Shown piece after piece: positions 1,383 through 61,539 of a stretch of 64,000 bases of DNA. Location: assembly GCF_003991155.1 (NCBI RefSeq), contig NZ_CP031293.1; one strand, 5' to 3'. Within the stretch, counting starts at the first letter, position 1, and every line of letters starts with the position of its first letter. The position numbers were made by a program, and so were the translations under genes. The notes beneath the pieces were generated by a model, which ran no database searches, was not told where the DNA came from, and saw only the letters and a list, made by a program, of their open reading frames with translations. The stretch comes from Escherichia coli. Its GTDB lineage: Bacteria; Pseudomonadota; Gammaproteobacteria; Enterobacterales; Enterobacteriaceae.

Positions 1383-1458
1383 TGGTGGGTCGTGCAGGAT
1401 TCGAACCTGCGACCAATTGATTAAAAGTCAACTGCTCTACCAACTGAGCTAACGACCC
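1383..1458 (-). tRNA. lysQ: tRNA-Lys (anticodon UUU)
   Basis: Reverse complement matches the E. coli tRNA-Lys(UUU) sequence GGGTCGTTAGCTCAGTTGGTAGAGCAGTTGACTTTTAATCAATTGGTCGCAGGTTCGAATCCTGCACGACCCACCA; 7th gene of the cluster; symbol assigned by K-12 gene order. Confidence 0.9.
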
Positions 1459-1491
1459 CTTGCGGGATTATGCTGCTTTAATCATTCAGGA

Positions 1492-1567
1492 TGGTGGGTC
1501 GTGCAGGATTCGAACCTGCGACCAATTGATTAAAAGTCAACTGCTCTACCAACTGAGCTAACGACCC
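1492..1567 (-). tRNA. lysZ: tRNA-Lys (anticodon UUU)
   Basis: Identical 76-nt tRNA-Lys copy on the minus strand; symbol by K-12 order. Confidence 0.9.
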
Positions 1568-1615
1568 ATACGGGTGTTACCTGAAAGATTTCTACTCGGA
1601 ACCAATCTTTAAAAT

Positions 1616-1691
1616 TGGTGGGTCGTGCAGGATTCGAACCTGCGACCAATTGATTAAAAGTCAACTGCTCTACCAACTGAGCTAACGACCC
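1616..1691 (-). tRNA. lysY: tRNA-Lys (anticodon UUU)
   Basis: Identical 76-nt tRNA-Lys copy on the minus strand; symbol by K-12 order. Confidence 0.9.
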
Positions 1692-1694
1692 GAG

Positions 1695-1770
1695 TGGTGG
1701 GTGATGACGGGATCGAACCGCCGACCCCCTCCTTGTAAGGGAGGTGCTCTCCCAGCTGAGCTAATCACCC
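1695..1770 (-). tRNA. valZ: tRNA-Val (anticodon UAC)
   Basis: Reverse complement matches tRNA-Val(UAC) GGGTGATTAGCTCAGCTGGGAGAGCACCTCCCTTACAAGGAGGGGGTCGGCGGTTCGATCCCGTCATCACCCACCA; symbol by K-12 order. Confidence 0.9.
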
Positions 1771-1821
1771 GATACTGCGCTGGATACTACAAACTACTTC
1801 CACCGAACCCACCGTCATTAG

Positions 1822-1897
1822 TGGTGGGTCGTGCAGGATTCGAACCTGCGACCAATTGATTAAAAGTCAACTGCTCTACCAACTGAGCTAACGACCC
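1822..1897 (-). tRNA. lysW: tRNA-Lys (anticodon UUU)
   Basis: Identical 76-nt tRNA-Lys copy; symbol by K-12 order. Confidence 0.9.
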
Positions 1898-1899
1898 GG

Positions 1900-1975
1900 T
1901 GGTGGGTGATGACGGGATCGAACCGCCGACCCCCTCCTTGTAAGGGAGGTGCTCTCCCAGCTGAGCTAATCACCC
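1900..1975 (-). tRNA. valT: tRNA-Val (anticodon UAC)
   Basis: Identical 76-nt tRNA-Val copy; symbol by K-12 order. Confidence 0.9.
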
Positions 1976-2010
1976 GATACTACGCTGGATACTACAACTA
2001 ACTACGTTAG

Positions 2011-2086
2011 TGGTGGGTCGTGCAGGATTCGAACCTGCGACCAATTGATTAAAAGTCAACTGCTCTACCAACTGAGCTAACGACCC
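2011..2086 (-). tRNA. lysT: tRNA-Lys (anticodon UUU)
   Basis: Identical 76-nt tRNA-Lys copy; first gene of the minus-strand lysT-valT-lysW-valZ-lysY-lysZ-lysQ operon. Confidence 0.9.
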
Positions 2087-2250: not shown

Positions 2251-3042
2251 TTACATCGCGTTCAGACGTTTTTGCGCCTGTTTAGCGCCATCAGTACCAG
2301 GGTATTTACTGATAACCTGCTGGTATACGGCTTTCGCTTTTGCGGTGTCACCTTTGTCCTGCATGATGACGCCGACTTTAAACATCGCATCTGCAGCCTT
2401 CGGTGACTTCGGATAGTTTTTCACTACCGAAGCAAAATAATACGCCGCATCATCTTTTTTACCCTTGTTGTAGTTTAACTGACCCAGCCAATAATTGGCG
2501 TTTGGCAGGTAAGTTGAATCAGGGTAATTCTTGATGAAATTCTGAAATGCCACCATTGCGTCATCCTGGCGGGATTTATCCTGCACCAGCGCAATAGCTG
2601 CATTGTAATCCGTGTTTGCATCACCGCTTTTCACCGGCGCGCCAGCATTCGCAGTACCAGCATCAGCTGTCGGCGTCGTTGATGCCGCCGCACCGCTTTG
2701 ATCGCCGCTGGTTGATTGCGCCGTTGCACCACCGCTGCTGAGGCTATCGATCTGCAACAGGATCTGCTTTTGCCGCTCCACGACCTGATTCAGTTGATAC
2801 TGATTTTCCTGAATCTGACCACGCAGGGAATCAATATCGGATTGATTATCAGAGAGTTGTTGCTGGAGTTGGGTTAAAAGCTGGCTGTGAGCATTAGAAA
2901 TACGCTCAAGTTGAGTGACGCGGTCTTCGACCGAGCCTGAGCCGACACTACTGATTGGTGCCTGAGCAAAAGCGGCCCAGGGGGCCGCTATACCAACCAG
3001 TAACGACAGACTCAATAGTTGATGTCTGAAGTTACTGCTCAT
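2251..3042 (-). CDS. cpoB: Cell division coordinator CpoB (YbgF), TPR protein of the Tol-Pal system
   Basis: 263-aa ORF, near-identical by recall to E. coli CpoB/YbgF; signal peptide, coiled-coil, C-terminal TPR repeats. Confidence 0.95.
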   Translation of the reverse strand: MSSNFRHQLLSLSLLVGIAAPWAAFAQAPISSVGSGSVEDRVTQLERISNAHSQLLTQLQQQLSDNQSDIDSLRGQIQENQYQLNQVVERQKQILLQIDSLSSGGATAQSTSGDQSGAAASTTPTADAGTANAGAPVKSGDANTDYNAAIALVQDKSRQDDAMVAFQNFIKNYPDSTYLPNANYWLGQLNYNKGKKDDAAYYFASVVKNYPKSPKAADAMFKVGVIMQDKGDTAKAKAVYQQVISKYPGTDGAKQAQKRLNAM

Positions 3043-3051
3043 GCAATTCTC

Positions 3052-3597
<546 letters not shown>

Positions 3598-9613: not shown

Positions 9614-11182
9614 TTAGCGTGCCGGCTGAGTAGTCGTGGAAGACTGCTCAAAGTGATAGCGACCGGTTTTCAGGCTGCTTGGGCCGAGGCGTGCAAACTT
9701 GAACATTAAGAACAATTCTGCCACCAGGAACAGGGTATACAGGCCGCAAATCAGCACCATTGAGAAGATGAGATCGCCTGCGGTCAGTGACGAGTTCGCC
9801 ACAGCTGTCGGCAGCACTTCACCGATAGCCCACGGTTGGCGGCCATATTCAGCCACAAACCAGCCCGCTTCTACAGCAATCCACGGCAGCGGAATACCGT
9901 ACAGCGCGGCGCGCAGCAGCCATTTTTTCTCGCCAATGCGGTTGCGGATGACACTCCAGAAAGAGAGCGCGATGATTGCCAGCAGCAGGAAGCCACACGC
10001 CACCATGATACGGAACGCGAAGTACAGCGGCGCTACACGCGGAATGGAGTCTTTGGTTGCCTGTTGAATCTGCGCTTCAGTCGCATCAGCCACGTTTGGC
10101 GTATAGCGTTTCAGCAGCAGACCGTAACCGAGGTCTTTCTTCATGCTATTGAACTGGTCACGAACCGCCTGGTCGGTAGAACCAGAACGCAGTTGCTCGA
10201 GCAGAGAGTACGCCTTCATCCCGTTACGAATGCGTTCTTCATGCTGCACCATCAGTTCTTTCAGGCCGATAACTGGAGTATCCACGGAACGCGTTGCAAT
10301 GATGCCCAGCGCGTAAGGGATCTGGATCGCAAATTTGTTCGTCTCCTCTTCCTGATCAGGAATGCCGAACAGAGTAAAGGCAGCAGGCGCAGGTTGCGTT
10401 TCCCACTCGGCTTCAATAGCAGCCAGTTTGGTTTTCTGCACGTCGCCCATTTCGTAACCAGATTCATCACCCAGAACAATAACAGACAGAACGGCAGCCA
10501 TACCGAAGCTGGCAGCGATAGCAAAGGAGCGTTTAGCGAAGGCGAAGTCACGACCTTTCAGCATATACCATGCGCTGATACCGAGGATGAACATCGCGCC
10601 AGTCACATAACCAGACGCTACAGTGTGAACGAATTTCACCTGAGCAACCGGGTTAAGCACCAGCTCGGAGAAGCTCACCATCTCCATACGCATAGTTTCA
10701 AAGTTGAAATCGGACGCGATTGGGTTTTGCATCCAGCCGTTCGCAACCAGAATCCACAGTGCGGACAGGTTTGAACCGAGCGCCACCAGCCAGGTGACAC
10801 ACATATGCTGAACTTTACCCAGACGATCCCAACCGAAGAAGAACAGACCTACAAAGGTGGATTCGAGGAAGAAGGCCATTAGACCTTCGATTGCCAGCGG
10901 CGCACCGAAGATATCCCCTACATAGTGGGAATAGTAAGACCAGTTAGTCCCGAACTGGAACTCCATGGTCAGACCGGTAGCCACACCCAGAGCGAAGTTG
11001 ATACCAAACAACTTGCCCCAGAACTTGGTCATATCTTTATAAATCTGTTTGCCGGAAAGGACGTAGACCGTTTCCATAATGGCCAGCAGGAACGCCATAC
11101 CGAGCGTCAGTGGCACAAAAAGGAAGTGGTACATCGCGGTCAAGGCAAACTGTAAGCGCGACAGTTCGACTATATCTAACAT
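9614..11182 (-). CDS. cydA: Cytochrome bd-I ubiquinol oxidase subunit I
   Basis: ORF-track frame 9614..11185; second Met ([20 protein letters not shown]...) matches the 522-aa E. coli CydA. Confidence 0.95.
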
Positions 11183-11185
11183 CAT

Positions 11186-11987
11186 GACTCCTTGCTCATC
11201 GCATGAAGACTCCGAGAGTGAACCCCGTTAGAAAGGGTCACACGCATGCCCCAATACAAAATTATTTGCTCGCCTCTATCGTTGCCATTTCATCAAAAGA
11301 GGAAAAGACAATGATAAAAAAGTTACAAATATGTTAATGAATAAACCAAATTGATCCCGTAATTATATTACGCCGCAAAATCCTTACAATAAACAGGTTT
11401 TTATTGAGCAAATTTGCATTTTTCGACAGTGATCAATTTATAGCGAAATTGTCACGATCTCACCAATTTGATCTACGACAATTTATCGTGTTTTGCAGAT
11501 TTTTTTCAAGAATTAAAAATTGATTTATATCAAAACCAACCAAATATGTTAATTATGTATAAACCATAGATCATTGGTGATTTTATTGTTAATTTATTGT
11601 GAAATATTTATGCAACACAATTATTACAATGAAAAGGTATAGATAAAAAACCAGTGTTTTATTTAACAGAACCGCCTTATCCACTTTTTATAATACCAAT
11701 TGATTAGATTAGCCAATTTGTTGCTATTTTACATAACATATTTTTATCAAAGTTAATTGATTGTTGCCTTTATGAGCACCGGCCGTAAGCCCGTTATGTT
11801 ATTGTTTCATTAGTAATAATCACTTAAATGTATCGATGAAACAGGTATGACTTAGCGGGAGTGATTGTTTCTGAGTGAACAGAAACCACTTTCGCCTGAT
11901 AAATGAAAAATGAGCGATTTTTGCAAGTTAGTTTTTCTATAGCCGAGTACGCTCAGCGCCTCGCTTGATTACAATGAGGTTGCTGCT
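11186..11987 (-). promoter_or_regulatory. Long AT-rich cydA upstream region (expected multi-promoter, ArcA/FNR/H-NS-controlled cydAB regulatory region) merging into the accessory-island junction
   Basis: About 800 bp without a convincing ORF upstream of cydA, visibly AT-rich with several TTGAT-like half-sites. cydAB is known to have a long multi-promoter regulatory region; individual sites were not mapped. Confidence 0.45.
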
Positions 11988-13435: not shown

Positions 13436-13981
13436 ATCCACCCAGTCGCGAAAATGGCCTGCGTTATTGCCAGAGGTAATAAAACCTTTGATTAACGTTA
13501 CTCATACTGGTAGCACCTTCATGTACCTCTCTTTTTTACGAAAAATCAAAAGAGCTAACTAAGGTCATAATTCGCATGAATCATTAACCATTTGTTATTT
13601 TCAACATTATTTTTACATTAAGCAGAGATGAATTGCAGTGAAATTCGACTTAAATTTTATGAAATGCATTTACTCATGGCTAAACCCATATCACTAAAAT
13701 GCAAATTAGAAGTAGATCACAAATACCTCAATACACCAAATCAAGTTAATTTTAAAAATTTAACATTCATGACATTAGTTGACATAACACACTGAATTAA
13801 CATGAGAATTTAACAACATACTTTAAACAATCATTTCCCGAAAGACATTTTGAAAATAGATCAATTGCAACATTACGGTCAGATAAAGACACTCCTGTGA
13901 TATTAAACCTGTGCCGTTATGAACGGCCATAAATACGACGTGTGTAACTTATTTTACTCTCTGTCTTACAAAGGATTACCC

Positions 13982-23422: not shown

Positions 23423-24025
23423 ATGGAAGCGCGAATTTCAACTGAACGGCATGTGCAGCGCCAGCAGAAATTGAAGGAACAGGTCGATACGCGCGTCGCG
23501 GCGGCGATAGAGAAAAAAGGGATTTTGATTGTTTTCACCGGCAACGGCAAAGGGAAATCCACTGCCGCGTTTGGTACTGTGACGCGCGCGGTGGGTCATG
23601 GCAAAACGGTGGGGGTTGCGCAGTACATCAAGGGGCAATGGGACAACGGCGAATACAACCTTCTCCAACCGCTGGGGGTTGAGTTTCATATTATGGGAAC
23701 CGGTTTTACCTGGGAGACACAGAACCGGCAAGCGGATATCGACGCGGCGAAAGAGGTCTGGTCGGAAAGCAAACGGATGCTGGCTGACAAGCGTTACGAC
23801 TTAGTGGTGCTTGATGAGCTGACCTATATGCTGGCTTACCATTATCTGGACACCGAAGAAGTGATCGCTTCTCTGCAAAACCGCCCGGCACAACAAAGTG
23901 TCATTGTCACCGGACGCGGTTGCCACAGTCAGATATTAAAAATGGCGGATACGGTCAGCGAAATCCGCCCCGTCAAACATGCTTTTGATAACGGCATTCA
24001 GGCGCAGCCGGGTATCGACTGGTAA
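23423..24025 (+). CDS. Corrinoid adenosyltransferase (CobA/BtuR family, cob(I)alamin adenosyltransferase)
   Basis: 200-aa ORF with P-loop GNGKGKSTAAFG and BtuR/CobA-like length; plausible supplier of adenosylcobalamin for glutamate mutase. Confidence 0.8.
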   Translation: MEARISTERHVQRQQKLKEQVDTRVAAAIEKKGILIVFTGNGKGKSTAAFGTVTRAVGHGKTVGVAQYIKGQWDNGEYNLLQPLGVEFHIMGTGFTWETQNRQADIDAAKEVWSESKRMLADKRYDLVVLDELTYMLAYHYLDTEEVIASLQNRPAQQSVIVTGRGCHSQILKMADTVSEIRPVKHAFDNGIQAQPGIDW

Positions 24026-24028
24026 TAA

Positions 24029-24056
24029 CTGCGCCTGGCATCCCGCCAGGCGCAGG
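24029..24056. terminator. Convergent terminator hairpin (ctgcgcctgg-N8-ccaggcgcag) between the cobA-like and LysR genes
   Basis: 10-bp perfect inverted repeat followed by gtttta on the plus strand; seen directly. Confidence 0.55.
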
Positions 24057-24058
24057 TT

Positions 24059-24964
24059 TTACATCTCCTGCGGTACGACCGATTTCGCCAGCAACCATTC
24101 ACGAAATTGCTGCAAGTGCGGTGAGTCAGACTTCTCTTCCTGCCACGTCATAATAAAACGATTACCGGTACGAATAGGCACATCACAGGGAATCACCATA
24201 TCGCCACTATCCAAATCATGTTGAATAGCGAACCGTGGTAACAGCGCCACGCCGAGATTAGAGCGCACGGCGGCAATCAGCATTGAAAGCAAATCGAAAC
24301 GTGGTCCGTTATTGACCAGCGGACTGCTAACGCCAGATAAAGCAAACCACTCTTCCCAGCCAGTAATACGGGTGCTTTGATGCAGAAGTGGTAACTCAGT
24401 AAGCAGTTCTGCCACTGACAGTTTTTGATCGGACATTGCAAGCAAACTGCCGCTGCATACCGGCAAAATCTCCTCATCAAAGAGATATTCTACTTCCGCC
24501 CAGGGCGCGCAAAAATTTTCGCGCATAATGACAGCATCGTACTCCCGATTAAGAAAATCGCCGTTATTAGCTAAAGAATGAATATTAACAATAATATCGG
24601 GATGTAACTTTGTGAATTCATGTAAATTTGGGATTAACCAGTGGGTACTAAAAGTAGGATTAACGGCAAGTTCAATAACCTGAACCGTAGGCTGCCAGGT
24701 CATAATGGTATTGGTATCGCGTTCCAGCTTATTTAATGTTTCTTTTACTATCCCCAGGTAATACTTCCCTGCATCATTAAGAAAAATGCGTTTTTTAGAG
24801 TGTGAAAATAACGGAGTACGTAAAAATTCCTCCAGCGCACTTACTTGTCTGAATACTGCACTTTGGGTTAACGCTAACTCCTCTGCCGCTCTGGTATAAC
24901 TTTCATGACGTGCGACGACCTCAAAAGTCACCAGCAGTTCCGTTTTAGGTATTTTTCCTCGCAT
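24059..24964 (-). CDS. LysR-family transcriptional regulator
   Basis: 301-aa ORF with N-terminal wHTH (...TFEVVARHESYTRAAEELALTQSAVFRQVSALEE...) and LysR substrate-binding-domain length; AGGGAAGG SD. Confidence 0.85.
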   Translation of the reverse strand: MRGKIPKTELLVTFEVVARHESYTRAAEELALTQSAVFRQVSALEEFLRTPLFSHSKKRIFLNDAGKYYLGIVKETLNKLERDTNTIMTWQPTVQVIELAVNPTFSTHWLIPNLHEFTKLHPDIIVNIHSLANNGDFLNREYDAVIMRENFCAPWAEVEYLFDEEILPVCSGSLLAMSDQKLSVAELLTELPLLHQSTRITGWEEWFALSGVSSPLVNNGPRFDLLSMLIAAVRSNLGVALLPRFAIQHDLDSGDMVIPCDVPIRTGNRFIMTWQEEKSDSPHLQQFREWLLAKSVVPQEM

Positions 24965-25234
24965 AATGCCTTCCCTTAAAAATAGTTGAAACTATCAAAA
25001 AACCATTACTTATTGCTAAGTAATGGCAACCAAAGCAGCAATCAATATTTTATAAAAATCATGTTCGATATTTATAACCTGGTAAGCCTGGCGTGACAAT
25101 TGTCTCAATCAGACAATAATAATCCGAAAAGCAAAACGCCCTTCGGATTATTATGATTCAAGTTAAGTGAAGATTATTAAATTGATAGCAATTATCATAT
25201 CTATGGATATTATGACAAACAATCAACAAAAATT

Positions 25235-26905
25235 TTATTTTTGATTTATAGCATATCCTTCTAAGAATTTTTGCGAAGCTGCAATATCTGGGGTAAAGAC
25301 CCGATCCTGGTCGACAAACGGCACGACTTTTCTGTATTCGGTAAACATTGCTTTGGTGGATTTCCCTAATGCCAGTTGTGGATCGGCCTGCAACCGTAAA
25401 TCGAGAGCCTGTGCGGAATGCATCAGTTCAATGCCATAAATCACGTTCAGATTATCGACAACCTGTTTCAATCTTCTGGCCGCGTGGTCATTATTGGCAC
25501 CGGTATCTTCTATACCTCCGGCAACCGGTTGAATATCGAAAGAAACCGGGTTAGCGAGATCGACATTTTCCGCATGCAGCGCAACAAACGGGATATGTAA
25601 TGAACCGAAGCCATGACCTTTATTACCTGCTGCCGACAGGAAGCGTGACAAACCGGTAAAGTGATCATCTTCAAGATGCAGCGAGCGGCGCATACTGTTA
25701 TGTGAAACATGCACTAACGCCACGGTCAGACGCTGGGTGGCAAGCGCAACCGGTAACGATTCGAAATTCGCCGTCGGGAAGATCCCACCGCTGATTGCCC
25801 CATCTTTAACAAAATATTGCGCGACCTGACTGGAGTCCTGATACGCTTTGTCTGCATTCAGCACGGTTGCCGGGTTGTCATCGGAACTGTTGATCTGCAC
25901 GGTAATGGTATCTTCAGCATCGCGCAACGCGCGCATTGCCTCAGAAATGGTATACACCGTCGTTCTGAACGATAACGGATCCTGCAATGCACGTTTGTCA
26001 TGCTTATGCCATAAATAAGAACCACTTAACGCATCGCGAATCTCTTTAGCGGAATCAGCCAACTGCGGGAAAGGACGCACGGCGATCGACTGCGGCAGTA
26101 CCGGCGCGACATTGCCATTCAACGCTTCCAGACTCATAGCGAAAACCACCGGGCTGACATTCAGCAACTGACGTGCCGAACGAACAGCTTCGATAGCGTA
26201 GGCTGTCCCGACGCTGTTGTTCGATAAAATCGCCAGCATATCTTTACCCTGCGGTACCAGTGGCTTAAGTCCCACTTTCGCCAGCGCGTCACCACCGCTC
26301 ATTTGCACGCCATTTACTCGGGCTTTCCATTCCCCCATCATCACCAGACCAACGTGCGAAGCGAGCATAATATCCGCTGCGCCGATACTTCCCCGCACCG
26401 GAATTAACGGTGTAACGCCGCGATTAATAAATTCGGCATACAACTCGGCAATATAAGGCTGTGCGCCGGTTTGCCCATGCAGCATGGTATTTAAACGTAA
26501 TACCATTGAAAGGCGTGCCAGATAATCCGGTAACATCGGACCAACGCCCGCAGAATGGGCGCGCAGCGCGGCAGCATTAAATTTTTTCGACGCGTCAATC
26601 ACCTCAGGCGTTAAATTTCCTTTGGCATCAAATATGGGCTGATCTTTATTTAGCCCCACGCCCACGGTTAAGCCATAAACAGGCGTACCTGAATGCGCGG
26701 CAGTCATCACCAGATCATAACTTTTTTCCATGCGCTCCATGGCGTTCGACGCGATTTTGACGCCGTTATCACCTAATGCAATTGACCAGGCCTGGTCAAT
26801 GGAAAGATGTTCGCCATCCAGCGTAATGGTTGATTTCGCCATCGCAATGGAGCAAACGCTCCAGAGCACAACGGTGACAGTGACTCTTCGTATCAATCCT
26901 TTCAT
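25235..26905 (-). CDS. Histidine ammonia-lyase (HAL/PAL) family protein with N-terminal signal peptide and apparently degenerate MIO motif
   Basis: 556-aa ORF. N-terminus MKGLIRRVTVTVVLWSVCSIAMA-KS looks like a Sec signal peptide; the rest aligns by eye with HutH (YGLTVGVG, ...PVRGSIGAADIMLASH...), but the canonical GASGDL (Ala-Ser-Gly MIO precursor) reads GAADIM. Confidence 0.7.
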   Translation of the reverse strand: MKGLIRRVTVTVVLWSVCSIAMAKSTITLDGEHLSIDQAWSIALGDNGVKIASNAMERMEKSYDLVMTAAHSGTPVYGLTVGVGLNKDQPIFDAKGNLTPEVIDASKKFNAAALRAHSAGVGPMLPDYLARLSMVLRLNTMLHGQTGAQPYIAELYAEFINRGVTPLIPVRGSIGAADIMLASHVGLVMMGEWKARVNGVQMSGGDALAKVGLKPLVPQGKDMLAILSNNSVGTAYAIEAVRSARQLLNVSPVVFAMSLEALNGNVAPVLPQSIAVRPFPQLADSAKEIRDALSGSYLWHKHDKRALQDPLSFRTTVYTISEAMRALRDAEDTITVQINSSDDNPATVLNADKAYQDSSQVAQYFVKDGAISGGIFPTANFESLPVALATQRLTVALVHVSHNSMRRSLHLEDDHFTGLSRFLSAAGNKGHGFGSLHIPFVALHAENVDLANPVSFDIQPVAGGIEDTGANNDHAARRLKQVVDNLNVIYGIELMHSAQALDLRLQADPQLALGKSTKAMFTEYRKVVPFVDQDRVFTPDIAASQKFLEGYAINQK

Positions 26906-26955
26906 TGTGTTTCCTTATCATGATGAGTTTAACAACGGGTTACTGCGACAACGTT

Positions 26956-27906
26956 TTAATTTGTTCTATCTGTTTTCCCCCGCCGGACAATACTGGTCAC
27001 CAGGCGAGCGGCAACTTTCGCAGTTAAATTATCGCGGTCCAGGTCCGGGTTAAGTTCGGCAATATCCGCAGCAATCAACTTCTCGCTACCGGCGATTAAA
27101 TTCACAATGGCTTCAGTAATATTTAACGGCACGCCTAACGGTGATGGAGCAGAAACACCGGGCGCCTGATAACCTGGTAAAACATCGAGACAAATCGTTA
27201 AATAAATGGCGTCACAAGCCTGAATATCTGCCGAGAGCGCATTAGCGATCTCATGCAAACCACGTTCAAATTGCAGAGATTCGTCCAGCCAATAACGCAC
27301 ACCGAGACAATCAGCGCGATCAAATAACGCCTGAGTATTGGCAAAACGACTTATTCCCAGCACGCGATAATGAAACGGTTTGCCATGCTGCGCGTTCCAC
27401 TCTTGCATCTGACGAAACGGCGTACCTGAATTGGCTTGTTCCGCCATCCGTAAATCAAAATGCGCGTCAAGGTTCACAATCAGTAACCGCTGAATATCCG
27501 GACGCGACTGCATAATCCCCTGAAATGTTCCCCACGCCACTTCATGACCGCCCCCCAGAACCACCGGTAAACTGCCGCGCGCAATGGCTGTAGATACGTT
27601 AGCCGCCAGACGATTTTGTGCGGATTCCAGCGCGTGGTCCTCGCTTTGTACATCGCCCATATCGAAAATAGCGCCTTCACAGAGCACTGGCATATTTCCC
27701 AACATGCTGCGCAACGCGCCCGGTCCGCCTGCTGCACCCGCTCGCCCATCATTACGTTGCACTCCGTCATCAACGGCAAAACCAATCAGCGTACAACCGC
27801 CGTGGCTTTGTTCACTAAACGGTTGCACATGCTGATGCCAGCGAGTGCTGATGCCGGTTTCCTGCGAGTCAACACGCCCACTCCACGGCAAAAATGTTTG
27901 CTTCAT
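26956..27906 (-). CDS. hutG: Formimidoylglutamase (arginase-family HutG)
   Basis: ORF-track frame extends to 27945; start set to MKQTFLPW, whose ATG overlaps the hutI stop by 1 nt. Arginase-fold motifs (GGGHEVAWG, NLDAHFDLR, DVLPGYQAPGVSAPSPLG) resemble Salmonella/Klebsiella HutG. Confidence 0.85.
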   Translation of the reverse strand: MKQTFLPWSGRVDSQETGISTRWHQHVQPFSEQSHGGCTLIGFAVDDGVQRNDGRAGAAGGPGALRSMLGNMPVLCEGAIFDMGDVQSEDHALESAQNRLAANVSTAIARGSLPVVLGGGHEVAWGTFQGIMQSRPDIQRLLIVNLDAHFDLRMAEQANSGTPFRQMQEWNAQHGKPFHYRVLGISRFANTQALFDRADCLGVRYWLDESLQFERGLHEIANALSADIQACDAIYLTICLDVLPGYQAPGVSAPSPLGVPLNITEAIVNLIAGSEKLIAADIAELNPDLDRDNLTAKVAARLVTSIVRRGKTDRTN

Positions 27907-29117
27907 TACCAACTCCTTTTTCCGCCGACAATAAGCCCCTGGCAAGGCTGATGCCCAAACCAGTAAGCCAGTTCACGTGGATGATTAAGATCCCAGACCG
28001 CCATATCCGCCCGTAATCCCGGTGCAAGTTCACCCCGGTCAATAAGTCCAAGTGCCTTTGCCGCATTACGCGTAACGCCCTGAACGGCTTCCAGCGGCGT
28101 CATGCGAAACAGCGTACAGGCCATATTGATCATCAATGGCAATGACATATTGGGAGACGTTCCGGGATTATGGTCCGTGGAGATAGCAATCGGCACACCT
28201 GCGGCCCGCAGAGCGACAATCGGCGGCAGATGGGTTTCGCGCAGGAAGTAATAAGCACCGGGAAGCAAAACCGCCACTGTTCCAGCCGCTTTCATGGCGG
28301 CGATCCCCGACTCGCTCAGGTACTCCAGATGATCGCAGGAGAGTGCAGAAAACGCCGCTGCCAGCGCCGCGCCTTGCTGGTCAGAAAGCTGTTCGGCATG
28401 CAGTTTTACAGGTAATCCATAGCTTTGCGCTTTACTGAAAACGCGCCGTACCTGCTCTGGAGTAAAGGCGATGTTTTCACAAAAAGCATCAACTGCATCA
28501 ATCAGCCCCTGTTCATGCAACACGCACATCCAGTCGCAAAGCGCCGTAATGTAATCATCACTGCGCCCGGCAAACTCTGGCGGCAGGCTGTGCGCCCCGA
28601 GAAACGTAGACTGAATATGTAACCCGGTAGATTGCTGCAAGCGGCGGATCACGCGTAAACAACGTGCTTCATCTTCCAGCGTTAAGCCATAACCCGATTT
28701 GATTTCAAGCGTACTGACGCCTTCACGTTGCCAGTTTCGCAGTCGCTGCGCCGCCAGTTCAAACAACTGTGTTTCGCTGGCTGCCCGCGTGGCATTAACC
28801 GTAGATAAGATCCCGCCGCCCGCTCTGGCGATATCTTCATAAGCCACGCCTTGCAACCGCATCTCAAACTCGTTCGCCCTCTGGCCGCCATACACCAGAT
28901 GTGTATGACAATCCACCAGACCGGGTGTCAGCAACTTACCCTGTAGATCGTGTTCCTCTGTAATATCAGCCGTCAGTTCACGGGGGATCTGCGTGGCCTT
29001 CCCAAGCCAGACAATCGAGTCACCACGGCTGATTAATGCCCCCTTTTCAATCACTCCCCAATCGTTAGCGGAAAGCGTCGCCAGCGTGGTATTTCGCCAG
29101 AGCGTTAATGCACTCAT
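27906..29117 (-). CDS. hutI: Imidazolonepropionase
   Basis: ORF-track frame extends to 29150; start set to MSALTLWRN (ATGA overlap with the hutD stop). Amidohydrolase motif DCHTHLVYGG and overall collinearity with HutI. Confidence 0.85.
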   Translation of the reverse strand: MSALTLWRNTTLATLSANDWGVIEKGALISRGDSIVWLGKATQIPRELTADITEEHDLQGKLLTPGLVDCHTHLVYGGQRANEFEMRLQGVAYEDIARAGGGILSTVNATRAASETQLFELAAQRLRNWQREGVSTLEIKSGYGLTLEDEARCLRVIRRLQQSTGLHIQSTFLGAHSLPPEFAGRSDDYITALCDWMCVLHEQGLIDAVDAFCENIAFTPEQVRRVFSKAQSYGLPVKLHAEQLSDQQGAALAAAFSALSCDHLEYLSESGIAAMKAAGTVAVLLPGAYYFLRETHLPPIVALRAAGVPIAISTDHNPGTSPNMSLPLMINMACTLFRMTPLEAVQGVTRNAAKALGLIDRGELAPGLRADMAVWDLNHPRELAYWFGHQPCQGLIVGGKRSW

Positions 29118-29704
29118 AAGGATTTTTCCCCTCGTAGATAATAAAGCCACCAGCCCGCCAGCTCACCGACGGAGACTTTCTTCCGTGGTACGAAACGCCA
29201 GGGCCTGCCATCAGGTGCAACCAGCCATAACAACATATTTGCCGCGACAAACACCCTTTTCTTGCCGCTTATCCACTCCCCTTCACACAGCGTGAACAGG
29301 CCCGCTTGCGCAAGTGACGGAGGACGCCAGTCAACGGCACTTTGCACCCGCAACATCCCCGCATCGCCTTCCCGCGCCATAACATTCAGATCGCGAACCC
29401 CGCCGCCCAGCAGCTGGCAATCAGGCATAGCTTCTCCAGGGAAAATTAAGGCGGGATCGTGACGTTGCAGGTTGATGATCGAATCGGCAAACGTTAGCTT
29501 CACCCCTTCCCCGTCGAGAATCGCGAGGCCACGAACCACGCCAGGCCACGCTGAAAAAGAGCCATCCTGACTGACATTCGCCATACTGATGCGCAACAAC
29601 CAGTTTTCATCATCGGGCCAGGCAAGCAGCTGTCGGGTAAACCCCCCGCCGTTGCGCCACGGTTGCAGCGGCTTATCCATTGCAGAAATCAGCATCGGTT
29701 CCAT
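29114..29704 (-). CDS. hutD: HutD/Ves-family protein
   Basis: 196-aa ORF with the PWRNGGG motif I associate with HutD/Ves; located within the hut cluster. Confidence 0.7.
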   Translation of the reverse strand: MEPMLISAMDKPLQPWRNGGGFTRQLLAWPDDENWLLRISMANVSQDGSFSAWPGVVRGLAILDGEGVKLTFADSIINLQRHDPALIFPGEAMPDCQLLGGGVRDLNVMAREGDAGMLRVQSAVDWRPPSLAQAGLFTLCEGEWISGKKRVFVAANMLLWLVAPDGRPWRFVPRKKVSVGELAGWWLYYLRGEKSL

Positions 29705-29705
29705 A

Positions 29706-31115
29706 TTAAGACTCGGGATAAATCGTATAAGCAGGAACGCAGGTGGTGCGTTTGGCCCACGGGTAATAGATAACGGCGGTAATTAACAAGCCGACAATCC
29801 AGGAGATATCCGCCCCATCCATCAGGACAGAAATGGGTCCCTGATACAGTTTTTGATTCAGGAAGGGGATCTGCACCAACACGCCTACGCCATAGCACGT
29901 CAAAGCGGTTTTGTTATACGCGCCATAACGCCCTTCCGGGGTATAAAGTGCCGGAATATCGGTTTTACCTTGTGAGATGAAGTAGTAGTCGATGAGATTA
30001 ATGGCGCTCCACGGCACAAATACCGTCAACAGCAGCAGAACGAAGTTTTTGAAATTATTCAAAAAATCTGCGCTTGCCGCCAGCGCGACGACCATCGACA
30101 ACAGCACGAACCCTACAACGTAGGCAGCACGAACACGCTGTGAAACCTGACTGCGATTATTAAAGGCGCTGACGGTCGCCAGAATCGACATAAAGCCACC
30201 GTAGGCATTCAAACAGTTCACCGTCAGTTTGCCGCAAACAATCACCGTATAAATCAGAATGGCGAAGGTGGGTCCGGCTAACTCACCCATAAAACCAACC
30301 TGATCCTTCAGGAAGTTAGCACCACAGGCCGCAACAAGCACGCCAAACGTCATGGCACATTGCGCGCCAAGCGTGGTTCCCAGAAAGGTGGCAAAGAAGA
30401 TTGATTTTGCTGGCGTATCAGAGGGTAAATAGCGGGAATAATCAGAGGCGTAAGGGGCAAACGTTAATTGCCATCCGGCAGAGAGAGCAATCGTTAATAA
30501 AAAGACCGACAGACTAAATGGCTTTTGACCAAATGCCGCAGCCACATCGTAGTGACCGCTAAGTTGAGTGGCCAGGTAAATAAACCCCAGAATACTTAAT
30601 ATCCCTGCAACACGGCCAACGACGTGAATAAGTTTATAACCGACCAATGCGATCATCGCGGTCAGCATGCCGAAAATAATAATTCCGGTCGATGCCGATT
30701 CGAAACCAAATATCCGGTTAATCGCCTGACCGGATAATACTGTACCCGTCGCGGCAAATCCAAGGTACATAATAATCACCATCAGTAACGGTAGCGCCGC
30801 TCCTTTAACGCCAAAGCGGATACGACTGGAGATCATCTGGGGTAATCCCAGCTTTGCCCCCTGCGACGAGTGCAATGCCATTACTGCACCACCAATAATA
30901 TTACCGATTAATAAACCAATTATTGCTGACATGGCTTCGGAGCCAAAAATAATCGCTAACGCGCCGTCCACCACAGCGGTAATTTGTAAGTTAGCACTTA
31001 GCCATAAAGTAAACTGACTGGATGGCGAGCCGTGGCGAGCAGACTCAGGAACGGCGTTAATCGTATTTGATTCTAATACTGGCTTTTTACTGCGGATAGG
31101 GCTGCTTGATTCCAT
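29706..31115 (-). CDS. NCS1-family permease (cytosine/purine/uracil/thiamine/allantoin permease family); putative urocanate/histidine-related transporter
   Basis: ORF-track frame extends to 31160; start set to MESSSPIRSK (AGGAGA SD 7 nt upstream). Multi-TM protein with NCS1/CodB-like layout; substrate inferred only from the hut context. Confidence 0.75.
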   Translation of the reverse strand: MESSSPIRSKKPVLESNTINAVPESARHGSPSSQFTLWLSANLQITAVVDGALAIIFGSEAMSAIIGLLIGNIIGGAVMALHSSQGAKLGLPQMISSRIRFGVKGAALPLLMVIIMYLGFAATGTVLSGQAINRIFGFESASTGIIIFGMLTAMIALVGYKLIHVVGRVAGILSILGFIYLATQLSGHYDVAAAFGQKPFSLSVFLLTIALSAGWQLTFAPYASDYSRYLPSDTPAKSIFFATFLGTTLGAQCAMTFGVLVAACGANFLKDQVGFMGELAGPTFAILIYTVIVCGKLTVNCLNAYGGFMSILATVSAFNNRSQVSQRVRAAYVVGFVLLSMVVALAASADFLNNFKNFVLLLLTVFVPWSAINLIDYYFISQGKTDIPALYTPEGRYGAYNKTALTCYGVGVLVQIPFLNQKLYQGPISVLMDGADISWIVGLLITAVIYYPWAKRTTCVPAYTIYPES

Positions 31116-31278
31116 GAAAAAGTCTCCTGCAAAATGAGAGGTCATTTTTTGAAACAGCAATAGAGGGTCGGGAGATATTTCTCTCGACGATGTAAAAATA
31201 TTTTTTGATAATTATTGTTATACAGGCGAATTATTCTCCGCCTGTATTAGCGCAAATATTAAATGACGGCGTTAATAT

Positions 31279-32976
31279 TTAGCGAATCATCGGTAATTTC
31301 AGACCATAGTTTTTGGCACATTCAATTGCCGCTTCATAACCCGCATCCGCATGACGCATAACCCCGGACGCACAGTCATTCACCAGCACACGCGCCAGAC
31401 GTTTTTCGGCTTCTTCGCTACCATCGGCAACAATAACCATCCCGGCGTGTTGTGAATACCCCATCCCGACGCCGCCGCCATGATGCAGGGATACCCACGT
31501 TGCTCCCCCTGCAGTGTTGAGCAAACCGTTGAGCAACGGCCAGTCAGAAACCGCATCACTGCCATCAAGCATGCTTTCGGTTTCGCGGTTCGGGCTGGCG
31601 ACAGAACCGGTATCAAGATGATCGCGCCCAATCACAATCGGTGCTTTTAGTTCACCGTTGCGCACCATTTCGTTGAATGCCAGCCCCGCCAGGTGACGCT
31701 CACCAAGCCCCAGCCAGCAAATACGTGAAGGAAGTCCCTGGAAGGCAATGCGCTCGCGCGCCATATCCAGCCAGCGATGCGTCAGTACGTTATTGGGGAA
31801 CAACTCTTTAATTTTGGCATCAGTTTTATAGATATCTTCCGGGTCGCCAGACAGCGCCACCCAACGGAATGGACCTTTGCCTTCACAAAACATTGGACGA
31901 ATATAAGCCGGAACAAAGCCCGGGAAATCAAAGGCATTTTGCAGACCTTCGTTGAAGGCCACCTGGCGGATGTTGTTGCCATAATCGACAACCGGGATCC
32001 CCATCGCCTGGAAGTCCAGCATCCCCTGAACATGTGCGACGCAGCTCTGTGCCGCTTCTTTTTGCAATCTGGCGTGTTGCTGTGGATCCTGCTGTGCAGC
32101 GCGCCATTGTTCTACGCTCCAGCCCATCGGTAGGTAGCCATAAACCAGATCGTGAGCGGAAGTCTGGTCGGTCACCAGATCCGGCTTGATCGCCCCCTGA
32201 CGTGCACGTTTCACCAGTTCAGGAACAATTTCCGCCGCATTGCCCAACAGCGCGATTGAAACAGCGTCTTTGCGCTCAGTATGGTATTTAATCAGCGCCA
32301 GTGCATCATCGAGATCTTTCGCTTGTTTATCGACATAACGGGTACGCAGACGGAAGTCGATGCTACTTTGCTGGCACTCGATATTTAATGAACACGCCCC
32401 CGCCAGAGTCGCCGCCAGCGGTTGTGCACCGCCCATACCACCTAGCCCTGCGGTCAGGATCCATTTTCCACTCAGCGAATTGTTGTAGTGCTGACGACCC
32501 GCTTCAACAAAGGTTTCGAACGTTCCCTGCACAATGCCCTGACTACCGATGTAGATCCACGAGCCAGCGGTCATCTGGCCGTACATGAACAGACCTTTAC
32601 GATCCAGTTCATTGAAATGATCCCAGTTGGCCCATTGCGGTACCAGGTTAGAGTTGGCAATCAATACGCGCGGCGCATCGGTATGCGTTTTAAACACGCC
32701 TACGGGTTTACCGGACTGAACCAGCAGTGACTCATCAGCTTCCAGATTTTTCAGTGATTCAAGGATTTTGTCAAAACACTCCCAGTTACGTGCCGCACGA
32801 CCAATACCACCATACACCACCAGATGCTGTGGATTTTCGGCAACGTCGGGATCAAGGTTGTTCTGCAACATCCGATAGGCAGCTTCGATCTGCCAGTTTT
32901 TGCAGTGCAGCTGCGTACCGTGTGGCGCATGGATTACACGGCTGGTATCAATACGCGGGTCTGAAGGCTTACTCAT
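31279..32976 (-). CDS. hutU: Urocanate hydratase (urocanase)
   Basis: ORF-track frame extends to 33075; start set to [11 protein letters not shown] (AGGAG SD). Near-collinear with canonical HutU (...[17 protein letters not shown]..., ...[15 protein letters not shown]..., ...[11 protein letters not shown]...). Confidence 0.9.
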
Positions 32977-33733
32977 GAATCTTCTCCTGTTACTTGATAA
33001 AATTAAACGCTGTAATCGGTCAGAAAAAACGAACGAATGAATATAGAAACGGTTTCTATAATTCCCGTTTATCATTTTGTATTATTAATTCATTTAGTGA
33101 ATATTGTTTGTCGTGGTATATTCACTATGAATATAAATTCAAAACCACCAACGCGTTGTATGCGAATTCAATATGCTTAATTTAACTTGTCGAAAAAGTG
33201 ATATTGTTGGCAAAATATTTTCTAATTTGAACATATGAATATGATGAGATTGCAAGATGTCAGTAATTTAATTATATGAGAAATGCGTTAATAACGACCA
33301 GATATTAGCGTAACAACAGGTGTTCCGACACCACACAGTGCGCATAACACAATGATATTTAAAATAAGATCTTCATTATTCGTCATAAAGACATGTTTTA
33401 TTATCATTAATAATCCATTTGTTTTCATCCCACTTTTGATAATTAAAAAACGGCAACAATGGATAGTTACCCGACGTAAAAACAGGCGTAAAAATAAATC
33501 TTAAAATATATCCACTGGAAATTATCATTTTTCATATTTTACAATCTGGCGTCGATAACTGACCCCTTTTATAACACCCCCGTTTGTTAATAGTCTTTTT
33601 TATCTTGTATTGATCGTCATTGCTGCATACACTACGCGCGTTTTCTTTCCCTTTTGCTGGCTGCTGACCGGAAAGACAAAATTACCCTCGCAATAAAGGG
33701 GGTTGTTTAACGTCTATATTTCAGGACAGCGTT

Positions 33734-35131
33734 ATGCATCATCTTTCAAGGCTTGATAAAGCCTTTCTGCGCAAAGGGATCCAACTTTCCCGCGCCAACA
33801 ATATTGTTTCATTATGTCGTCCATCAGGAGCCAGTGCCCACGTACTGCTGCCGGACGAACTGCCGCTGGAAGAAAAAGCAGTGACACAACTGCTTGATTT
33901 TGCAGAAGTGAAGATACCAGACCATCCAGGTTACGTACGCCAGACCTGTGCGACGCCAGATTTTCATCCCGGCAATGGCGTCCCCGTTGGCGCGGTAGTC
34001 GCCTCTACGCCGGATTTAGTCATTCCTGCGGCCATCGGCACCGATATTTCTTGTGGCATGCGGCTGCTGACGACCGGATTAACACTTGAGCAAGCCGAAG
34101 CGAATAAAGAAATAATCACTCAGCGGTTAACACAAGTGTTACTGCAAAATGAGCGCGATGTTCCGTTATCCGCACGAGCGTTCACCGCGCTTTTTGATGG
34201 CGGACCGGCAGATTGCATGTCGGCCTTGCCATCAGCAGGTCTCTGGACACGTACAAATATCCCCCGAATGACGCAAGAGATTGACCGCTGCATTGGGCTT
34301 AACGAGCATAACAGTCATTCGCGTTATGCCCCACCCGCCCTACTGGTAACGGACCGCCCATTACTCCGCGATCCTTGTCTTGGTACGCCGGGTTCAGGTA
34401 ATCATTTTATTGAACTTCAGGTGGTTGATAGCGTGGTTGATCGCCATGTTGCCTGGCAACAAGGGCTGAAAACGGGCGATATTGTGGTGATGATCCACAG
34501 TGGATCGCGAGATGTTGGCTTTTACGTCGGAAGACGCTGGATGGATCGCGCCCGTGCTGAATGGCCCACCGGACATAAACATCCACAAAGCGGGTTATAT
34601 GGCCTGGCAGGCGGACTGGCGGAGGAATATCTACAAGCGATGGGAATGGCGGCGCGTTACGCGTGGTTAAATCGCGTCACAATTGCCGAAATGGTGCGCG
34701 TATGTCTTGCCAATCTCTTTCATCAGGACAATTCGCATCTGGTGGTGGATGTGCCGCATAACATCATCCTTCGCGAGCATGAAATGAATATTCATCGCAA
34801 AGGTGCAACACCGGCACGCGCGGGCAATCTGGCGTTAATCCCCGGTTCAATGGGCGATTATTCGTGGCTTGCAGTCGGTTGCGGCAACCCGGAGTGGCTG
34901 TGGTCTTGCAGTCACGGAGCAGGACGCAGCCAGCGTCGGCAGGCCATGCACTCACGCGCGACTGAAGAGTCAACGTTGCCGTGGCAATGCGTCACATTGC
35001 GCGAAGAACGGCGTATTGAAGAAGCGCCAGCTGCTTATAAAGATATTGGTCCGGTTATCGAAGCCCAACAAGAGGCCGGATTAATTCATCCAGCGGTTAG
35101 ATTCCGACCGTGGTTAACGTTTAAGGCATAA
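33734..35131 (+). CDS. RtcB-family RNA ligase paralogue with about 35-55 residue N-terminal extension
   Basis: 465-aa ORF with RtcB signatures by eye: IPAAIGTDISCGMRLL, GSGNHFIELQ, MIHSGSRDVG, ALIPGSMGDYSW, SCSHGAGRSQRR, AYKDIGPVIEAQ. Confidence 0.85.
   Translation: MHHLSRLDKAFLRKGIQLSRANNIVSLCRPSGASAHVLLPDELPLEEKAVTQLLDFAEVKIPDHPGYVRQTCATPDFHPGNGVPVGAVVASTPDLVIPAAIGTDISCGMRLLTTGLTLEQAEANKEIITQRLTQVLLQNERDVPLSARAFTALFDGGPADCMSALPSAGLWTRTNIPRMTQEIDRCIGLNEHNSHSRYAPPALLVTDRPLLRDPCLGTPGSGNHFIELQVVDSVVDRHVAWQQGLKTGDIVVMIHSGSRDVGFYVGRRWMDRARAEWPTGHKHPQSGLYGLAGGLAEEYLQAMGMAARYAWLNRVTIAEMVRVCLANLFHQDNSHLVVDVPHNIILREHEMNIHRKGATPARAGNLALIPGSMGDYSWLAVGCGNPEWLWSCSHGAGRSQRRQAMHSRATEESTLPWQCVTLREERRIEEAPAAYKDIGPVIEAQQEAGLIHPAVRFRPWLTFKA

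Positions 35132-59874: not shown

Positions 59875-61539
<1,665 letters not shown>

Follow-up and report, generated by a model that had tools for sequence, protein, structure and literature searches.

A probable composite control region in the AT-rich gap between hutU and an RtcB-family gene of an accessory Escherichia coli island

In a 64,000-nucleotide stretch of Escherichia coli DNA (the window), hutU and an RtcB-family gene diverge from a non-coding gap that we regard, with a probability of about 0.6, as a composite, AT-rich region that controls both genes and belongs to an accessory gene island. Comparison across Escherichia suggests that the gap holds two control regions, one for each gene, with a near-neutral spacer of about 320 bp between them, rather than a single regulatory hub. 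The boundaries of the gap, its base composition, its accessory distribution and its pattern of constraint are reported below as direct observations, followed by the candidate regulatory elements on either side and by the other explanations that we considered.

Results

Extent and base composition of the gap

The E. coli chromosome at this locus runs in the order sucABCD, RtcB-family gene, gap, hutU-permease-hutD-hutI-hutG-HAL, LysR-family gene, cobO, fumarase, methylaspartate cluster, two hypotheticals and cydAB. Positions 32900-33800 of the window are 100% identical to strain CFSAN061771 and to many other strains; the CFSAN061771 record differs slightly from the window outside the locus, and register between the two is lost beyond about 47 kb. 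The RtcB-family gene (Pfam PF01139, RtcB) lies on the plus strand with its ATG at 33734, and hutU lies on the minus strand with its RefSeq start codon at 32976-32974.

32977..33733, no strand: non-coding gap of 757 bp, 32.5% GC, between the divergent hutU and RtcB-family genes
32983..32988, minus strand: hutU Shine-Dalgarno sequence AGGAGA, 6 nt before the ATG and invariant in all lineages compared

The first-pass annotation had described a long AT-rich gap between these divergent genes, which is correct, but had set its left edge at 33076 and its length at 658 bp, and these two values need revision. Position 33075 is merely the most upstream ATG of the hutU open frame. The RefSeq start, the AGGAGA sequence, the alignments of hutU homologues, which begin at residues 1-5 of the 565-aa protein, and indels of 1 and 2 nt inside 32977-33075 in other Escherichia lineages, which would break a longer hutU frame, together place the hutU start at 32976 and not at 33075, and the true gap is thus 757 bp long rather than 658 bp.

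The GC content of the gap is 32.5%, as against 50.5% for the whole window, and falls to 28.5-31.5% in 200-nt windows across it. Tracts of at least four A/T bases are densest at 33350-33560, where the A/T tracts had been singled out before, with 4.7 per 100 nt as compared to 1.0 in the hutU coding sequence. The gap had also been called unusually long, and it is indeed the second longest of those for which an in-register mapping was possible, but the gap between cydA and a hypothetical gene is longer (805 bp, 33% GC). Two further junctions in this island match the gap in AT content, with 546 bp at 32.6% GC and 270 bp at 29.6% GC.

The gap is part of an accessory island

Among 5426 complete E. 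coli genomes, the RtcB gene is present in 295 and the hut module together with the gap in only 144. Strains without hut have the LysR gene and RtcB facing each other over 589 bp, and the sequence shared with the window is confined to the part from about 33620 onwards and to 18 bp beside the LysR gene. The segment that takes the place of the gap in these strains is 463 bp long and likewise AT-rich (30.5% GC); as a diverged copy of the gap it was rejected, the alignment being no better than shuffles (z = -0.5). The island occupies the variable sucD-cydA interval of Escherichia, a hotspot in which many alternative gene cassettes are found.

Outside Escherichia, the nearest hutU proteins reach at most 89% identity, the named ones being mostly from Betaproteobacteria. 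The DNA that precedes hutU at 81 related loci in other genera showed no similarity to the gap, plasmids gave no match to it, and a metagenome scan with a 22-mer from positions 33165-33283 recovered Escherichia loci only, plus one chance match (L091). Four observations support the earlier suggestion of horizontal acquisition in so far as it concerns the hut module as a piece of accessory DNA: its presence in 144 of 5426 genomes, the unrelated segment of the hut-less strains, the distance of hutU proteins outside Escherichia and a gap that has no relative outside the genus. Our literature search found no paper on this E. coli hut island or its regulation.

Only the hutU side and the RtcB-proximal end are conserved

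The window was compared with the corresponding loci of E. marmotae, of Escherichia sp. E2586, of further locus sequence variants and of L093, a metagenomic non-coli Escherichia. In E. marmotae, hutU abuts sucD and there is no RtcB. L093 has a 20-kb deletion that joins window positions ~13176 and 33165 and has removed hutU. As a neutral yardstick we used the 4-fold degenerate sites of hutU, at which the window and E. marmotae are 64.7% identical.

32977..33164, minus strand: hutU-proximal segment, 83% identity to E. marmotae (binomial P ~1e-8 against neutral), moderately constrained
33165..33283, minus strand: strongly conserved block, 93% identity to E. marmotae (P ~2e-13 against neutral)
About 33284..33600, no strand: AT-rich spacer, 86% identity to E2586 and 49% to E. 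marmotae, which does not exceed the neutral level (measured over 33284-33619)
33620..33733, plus strand: RtcB-proximal segment, ~97% identity with hut-less E. coli

Judged against this neutral rate, positions 32977-33283 on the hutU side are under purifying selection, and in the comparison with E. marmotae, a lineage that lacks RtcB, constraint is limited to these ~300 bp. Some short islands of conservation interrupt the spacer, TTATCAT (33401-33407) among them. We also considered the spacer as hypervariable DNA and rejected this, as its divergence equals the neutral rate at the hutU 4-fold sites and diversifying selection is unneeded. The divergent promoters proposed in the first-pass annotation gain support by inference from this pattern, with ~300 bp conserved on the hutU side and ~130 bp on the RtcB side, each with a promoter-like element, but the single hub proposed with them does not fit the neutral spacer of ~320 bp; two separate control regions would account for it better.

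The block at 33165-33283 is 93% identical in E2586 and 94% identical in the metagenomic non-coli Escherichia, and sliding windows give about 98% identity for its core at 33201-33260. It occurs in one copy per E. coli genome and in hut-carrying genomes only. This single copy per genome, together with the lack of any match to the gap among plasmids, led us to reject a repeat or mobile element. The persistence of the block in L093 was likewise rejected as evidence that it acts independently of hutU, L093 being a 20-kb deletion derivative.

Candidate elements on the hutU side

Throughout, promoters, leaders and regulators are assigned by inference from consensus matches and conservation.

33271..33276, minus strand: candidate hutU -10 hexamer, TATAAT here and GATAAT or AATAAT elsewhere, with ATAAT invariant
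33304..33313, minus strand: conserved island TTACGCTAAT (hutU strand), TTAYGYTAAT in all lineages, about -49 to -40 from the predicted start
33042..33060, no strand: 9+9 palindrome TATAGAAAC-G-GTTTCTATA, perfect in E. coli only and imperfect in E2586 and E. marmotae
33095..33127, minus strand: inverted repeat TAGTGAATAT-N13-ATATTCACTA, with conserved arms and a 13-nt spacer that varies freely
33038..33242, range of five TGAATAT copies (at 33038, 33098, 33118 on the minus strand, 33128 and 33236): the commonest 7-mer in the gap
33126..33143, no strand: ARG box of 18 bp, core TGAATATAAATTCA, a perfect consensus match that includes one TGAATAT copy

Read on the hutU strand, conservation starts exactly at the invariant ATAAT, although the base that precedes it, the first of the candidate -10 hexamer, differs between lineages. 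In a position-weight scan the ATAAT site was among the better-scoring minus-strand promoter candidates, with a poor -35. From this hexamer, hutU transcription would start at ~33264 and produce a leader of ~288 nt, and the island TTACGCTAAT may represent a putative activator site. The first ~125 nt of the predicted leader are unusually unstructured as hutU-strand RNA (z = +2.14), and the first 105 nt contain 19 C and 10 G.

Closer to hutU, the palindrome at 33042-33060 is followed on the hutU strand by a U-run only after ~9 nt and, at this distance, is not a canonical terminator; the terminator scan did not flag it. The inverted repeat at 33095-33127 could be either a hairpin in the leader RNA or a protein-binding site with two half-sites, both of them putative. 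One of its pairs shifts from A-U to G-U to G-C across lineages, and this covariation is not significant, as 254 of 500 shuffles reach it and it represents a single event. The heptamer TGAATAT was seen five times against an expectation of 0.39, a count reached in 0 of 2000 shuffles, and may be a putative regulator half-site.

The ARG box at 33126-33143 matches the 18-bp ArgR consensus. No other perfect core exists in the 64-kb window, dinucleotide-shuffled versions of the gap contain a match in 0.12% of cases, and E. marmotae and E2586 retain the box with either no change or one change in its core. Functional ArgR operators usually consist of two boxes 3 bp apart. The gap resembles them in having one perfect 18-bp box that is conserved across lineages, but it differs in that the box is single and the TGAATAT copies around it do not form boxes: no second ARG box was found in the gap at up to two mismatches, and the positions 21 bp to either side are, by reading, unlike a box.

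Candidate promoter of the RtcB-family gene

33605..33633, plus strand: candidate sigma-70 promoter of the RtcB-family gene, TTGTAT (33605-33610), 17 bp, TACACT (33628-33633)
33475..33498, no strand: 12-bp direct repeat CGTAAAAACAGG / CGTAAAAATAAA, with one extra copy in strain ECONIH1

The predicted RtcB-family transcript would start at ~33640 and have a leader of ~93 nt. Hut-less strains carry TTGTAA-17-TACACT with equal spacing below non-homologous upstream DNA, and L093 carries TTGTAT-16-TAAACT ahead of a different gene, so that the pair persists below three upstream sequences that are unrelated to one another. The RtcB-proximal segment contains an AGGA ribosome-binding site at 33723-33726 and has a moderately stable fold (z = -1.87). 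The 12-bp repeat, which lies within the spacer, is variable in copy number between strains, as seen from the extra copy in ECONIH1; Tandem Repeats Finder reported nothing in the gap, the repeat being below its threshold. Over the gap as a whole, promoter-like hexamer pairs were not in excess of composition-matched shuffles (5 seen, 3.7 expected).

Signals of known hut systems and of nucleoid proteins

In Klebsiella aerogenes and Salmonella, the enteric hutUH region is under the control of NAC, CAP and HutC. The E. coli gap is comparable to the enteric hut(P) region and to the Pseudomonas hutU promoter in that it lies directly upstream of hutU and must hold the signals that switch histidine breakdown. 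However, its length is several times theirs and its AT content far higher, and it lacks a HutC operator, a CRP site and a sigma-54 promoter on the hutU strand, just as the island lacks hutC. By RefSeq annotation there is no hutC (GntR-family) gene in the island, and the sole annotated regulator is the LysR-family gene, which is also present in hut-less strains. The HutC operator of the Pseudomonas hutU promoter, TGTA-N2-TACA (PMC12977541), is absent throughout 32977-33733 at up to one mismatch.

No CRP site (TGTGA-N6-TCACA) was detected in the gap at up to two mismatches, and scans of the gap for NtrC, Fur and IHF sites gave nothing convincing. The NAC pattern ATA-N9-TAT has three matches in the gap, though it is a low-information pattern at 32% GC. 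For sigma-54 (TGGCAC-N5-TTGC), the best matches on the hutU strand have three mismatches and lack the GG, and a match with two mismatches, TGGCAAAATATTTTC at 33208-33222, is on the strand opposite to hutU and lacks the -12 GC.

The H-NS nucleation motif TCGATAAATT has only matches with two mismatches in the gap. H-NS binding to the gap is plausible from its base composition, as would be expected of accessory DNA with 30% GC. AT-rich 'promoter islands' and H-NS-bound intergenic DNA have been described beside horizontally acquired E. coli genes (PMC7054387). The gap resembles such promoter islands and H-NS-silenced DNA in its 32.5% GC, in being accessory and in carrying many weak promoter-like hexamers on both strands, but it differs from the promoter islands in that its promoter-like density does not exceed that of shuffles and that part of it is under strong purifying selection.

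Search for hidden RNA and protein genes

The first-pass annotation had raised the prospect of a small RNA or small-protein gene in the gap, for which we found no support in Rfam, in RefSeq, in stable folds or in ORFs shared across lineages. The Rfam 15 covariance models, run on the locus with E values up to 10, gave no match inside the gap and only chance matches outside it; at the gathering score, nothing relevant was found in the window and three related loci. RefSeq has no annotated feature inside the gap. Neither strand of the block folds better than shuffles (z = +0.86 and +1.47); across the block and a 324-nt hutU-strand stretch z ranged from +0.5 to +2.1, and the plus-strand stretch 33130-33345 gave -0.9. 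The terminator scan returned no convincing or conserved intrinsic terminator in the gap, and none in or beside the block.

Open reading frames of at least 10 aa were compared across six lineages, and none was intact in all six except two tiny plus-strand ORFs in near-invariant DNA. Taken to the letter, the statement that no ORF in the gap exceeds 60 aa does not hold, as a TTG-started frame of 63 aa is present at 32994-33185, but this frame is not conserved: its ATG-started form lacks the start codon in E2586 and is truncated in E. marmotae. Outside E. coli, a stop codon interrupts a minus-strand ORF of 31 aa (38 aa when counted from the UUG upstream of it). ORFs of 47, 50 and 46 aa have disappeared or been shortened in E2586, in E. 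marmotae or in both lineages, and an ORF of 79 aa called in E2586 is split in E. coli; all of these were rejected. Pfam had no match for any small ORF of the gap.

Discussion

We propose that the hutU-side ~300 bp (32977-33283) may serve as the control region of a hutU-permease-hutD-hutI-hutG-HAL operon that has no HutC gene of its own. In the most likely layout, hutU would have a weak sigma-70 promoter that depends on an activator and uses the invariant minus-strand ATAAT (33271-33276) as its -10. Transcription from ~33264 would then give a leader of ~288 nt, of which the first 100 nt would be sequence-constrained and unstructured, and the remainder would carry the conserved-arm hairpin at 33095-33127. 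Alternatively, the promoter might lie nearer to hutU, in which case the block, together with the TGAATAT copies and ARG-box-like sites, would represent upstream protein-binding sites. On the opposite side, the RtcB-family gene would have its own promoter, TTGTAT-17-TACACT at 33605-33633, and the middle ~320 bp (about 33284-33600) would be an unconstrained spacer to which H-NS may bind, as on other AT-rich acquired DNA.

It could be argued that, its core promoters aside, the gap is inert, H-NS-coated AT-rich junk at a recombination hotspot and that the block has been kept by recent shared ancestry or recombination rather than by selection. The many alternative cassettes of the sucD-cydA interval fit this explanation, as do the AT-rich composition of all island junctions, the neutral distal spacer, the promoter-like count at chance level and the persistence of the block in L093 beside the 20-kb deletion that took hutU. 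We consider it unlikely, however, as the block is kept in three non-coli lineages in which the flanking hutU has diverged normally (to ~90% identity at the DNA level and 65% at 4-fold sites) and the adjoining spacer has diverged to 49-86% identity, such that a patch of 120 bp would have to be recently transferred independently in each lineage; the proximal 188 bp, moreover, are likewise significantly constrained. The same conservation, far beyond that of neutral sites and of the rest of the gap, might instead mark the block at 33165-33283 as being or containing an independent small gene, either an sRNA on one of the strands or the two tiny plus-strand ORFs of 21 aa (MLNLTCRKSDIVGKIFSNLNI) and 14 aa (MNMMRLQDVSNLII), which share an ATGA overlap. 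Most lineages keep both frames open, variation at the last Ile codon is confined to synonymous changes (ATA, ATT, ATC), and TGA and TAA alternate as the stop. Near-invariant DNA, however, keeps ORFs open trivially, and by reading of the alignment the few substitutions are mostly non-synonymous and fall at first or second codon positions. In addition, neither ORF has a Shine-Dalgarno sequence or a Pfam match, the 14-aa ORF has lost its stop in E. marmotae, and the 21-aa ORF is frameshifted in one E2586 assembly. For an sRNA, the missing Rfam match, the lack of a terminator in or near the block and folds no better than shuffles on either strand weigh in the same direction, and a small gene of either kind thus seems improbable to us.

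Identity of ~98% throughout a 100-nt AT-rich block exceeds what a promoter or leader usually needs. Leader-based sensing was considered because the conservation of the block goes beyond the needs of a promoter or a Rho site and because the known hut signals are absent. Specifically, the hutU leader might act as a tnaC-like, histidine-sensing, Rho-dependent attenuator that substitutes for the missing HutC, with a minus-strand mini-ORF, UUG-Q-S-H-H-I-H-M-F-K-stop, at its 5' end and the conserved unstructured C>G stretch behind it as a Rho loading site. This reading draws on the 10 codons of the mini-ORF, three of them for His, with a UGA end in E2586, E. marmotae and L093, on the RNA 3' of it, which is less structured than 197 of 200 shuffles and has 19 C to 10 G in the first 105 nt, and on an island without hutC and a gap without a HutC operator. 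The likeness to the tna leader, with TnaC and its Rho loading site, is one of functional analogy only (a short ORF followed by unstructured C>G RNA ahead of an amino-acid catabolic operon), whereas the hut mini-ORF has a UUG start, no Shine-Dalgarno sequence, a stop that is not conserved in E. coli and no sequence similarity to its counterpart. The UUG lies ~11 nt from the predicted 5' end, and in all E. coli haplotypes UUA replaces the stop, which extends the frame to 38 codons. Three ATGs in AT-rich DNA, read in reverse complement, account for the His codons just as well. A Rho loading site does not usually retain its exact sequence, and the conservation seen here would be atypical of one. 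Given the UUG start, the lack of a ribosome-binding site and the stop missing in E. coli, we regard such an attenuator as very improbable. The broader proposition that the near-invariant first 100 nt of the ~288-nt leader are either a histidine-responsive Rho attenuator or a docking site for an sRNA or an RNA-binding protein seems just as remote. If leader-based control were true, it would be a mechanism described for no hut system.

On present evidence we read the gap as an ordinary AT-rich control region that belongs to an acquired island, and the practical value of these results is modest. The accessory hut operon shows none of the known hut regulatory signals, and the ~430 of 757 bp that are under selection show precisely where promoters might be mapped in E. 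coli strains that carry hut. The conserved block at 33165-33283 is the one part of the gap that deserves follow-up, as a more specific function may have been overlooked there; should it turn out to do more than serve as promoter or leader, it would show by what means a hut operon without a repressor senses histidine.

The sucD-cydA interval

The Escherichia sucD-cydA interval (window 11183-35230) is a hypervariable hotspot. Across the window and the six loci with which it was compared (L002, which is hut-less; L093, a metagenomic contig from an Escherichia other than E. coli; L004, L085, L096 and L097), the cassettes vary by strain and include mngRAB, an RtcB-family gene and hut, with further alternatives being a LysR gene with a methylaspartate/mesaconate cluster, two hypothetical genes, a TPR protein, and a 258-aa protein that is outer-membrane protein-like in appearance. 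Two long AT-rich gaps were also observed in the island formed by these accessory genes, namely one of 805 bp (33% GC, window 11183-11987) between cydA and the gene of a 314-aa hypothetical protein, and one of 546 bp (32.6% GC, window 13436-13981) before glmS. The GC minimum of the entire window, in 500-nt windows, lies at about 11250.

RNA features and short motifs

Elsewhere in the window, Rfam returned a strong match between pal and cpoB, and a tRNA array was present:

Window 3013-3151, minus strand, CpoB/ybgF intercistronic RNA thermometer (RF02782, 142 bits)
Window 1386-2086, minus strand, seven-gene tRNA array, which RefSeq annotates as Lys and Val

Relative to E. coli strain CFSAN061771, the tRNA genes are spaced differently, by ~100 bp. 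In L093, the sucC-sucB intergenic region carries a match (10427-10498, minus strand) to naRNA4, a nucleoid-associated RNA derived from REP elements (Rfam RF02564).

Copies of TGAATAT/ATATTCA, the former being the most frequent 7-mer of the hutU-RtcB gap, also occur in the AT-rich segment between the LysR- and RtcB-family genes of hut-less L002 (8579-8738; for example TGAATATCATAATTCA and ATTCATATACATGAATAT), which is unrelated to the AT-rich gap of hut-carrying strains. Their presence in both alleles may thus point to a common regulator, or else to a general bias of AT-rich DNA. Two 14-mers resembling the ARG box, the ArgR operator consensus, lie 28 bp apart at window 59931-59972 (TGTATATTTATGCA and TGCATAAATAATCA), with 2 mismatches each, in a part of the window that has lost register with the annotated record.

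The hut cluster and the adjacent LysR-family gene

The hut cluster comprises the following, with no hutC gene among them:

Window 25235-32976, hutU, PF02133 permease, hutD, hutI, hutG and HAL

Outside Escherichia, the closest relatives of the hutU protein are from Betaproteobacteria (Vogesella, 86%), and identity to metagenomic proteins reaches at most 89%; despite this affinity, the GC content of the genes (~50-55%) is E. coli-like. Both hutU and the permease gene are split by frameshifts in Escherichia sp. E2586 (L087 4001-7273), and the permease gene is split in two E. marmotae-like Logan assemblies (L100 4363-5771; L101 2717-4125), which suggests operon decay in some lineages, or else assembly errors.

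Window 24001-28000, spanning the LysR-family gene, HAL and hutG, shares only 96.7% identity with CFSAN061771, compared with 99-99.8% in the flanks, and looks like a recombination patch within the island. Upstream of the LysR-family start codon, only 18 bp (window 24965-24982) are common to hut-carrying and hut-less strains, and in the former the entire hut operon lies directly upstream in the same orientation. In hut-carrying strains the LysR-family gene has thus lost its original promoter region, and it may be co-transcribed with hut.
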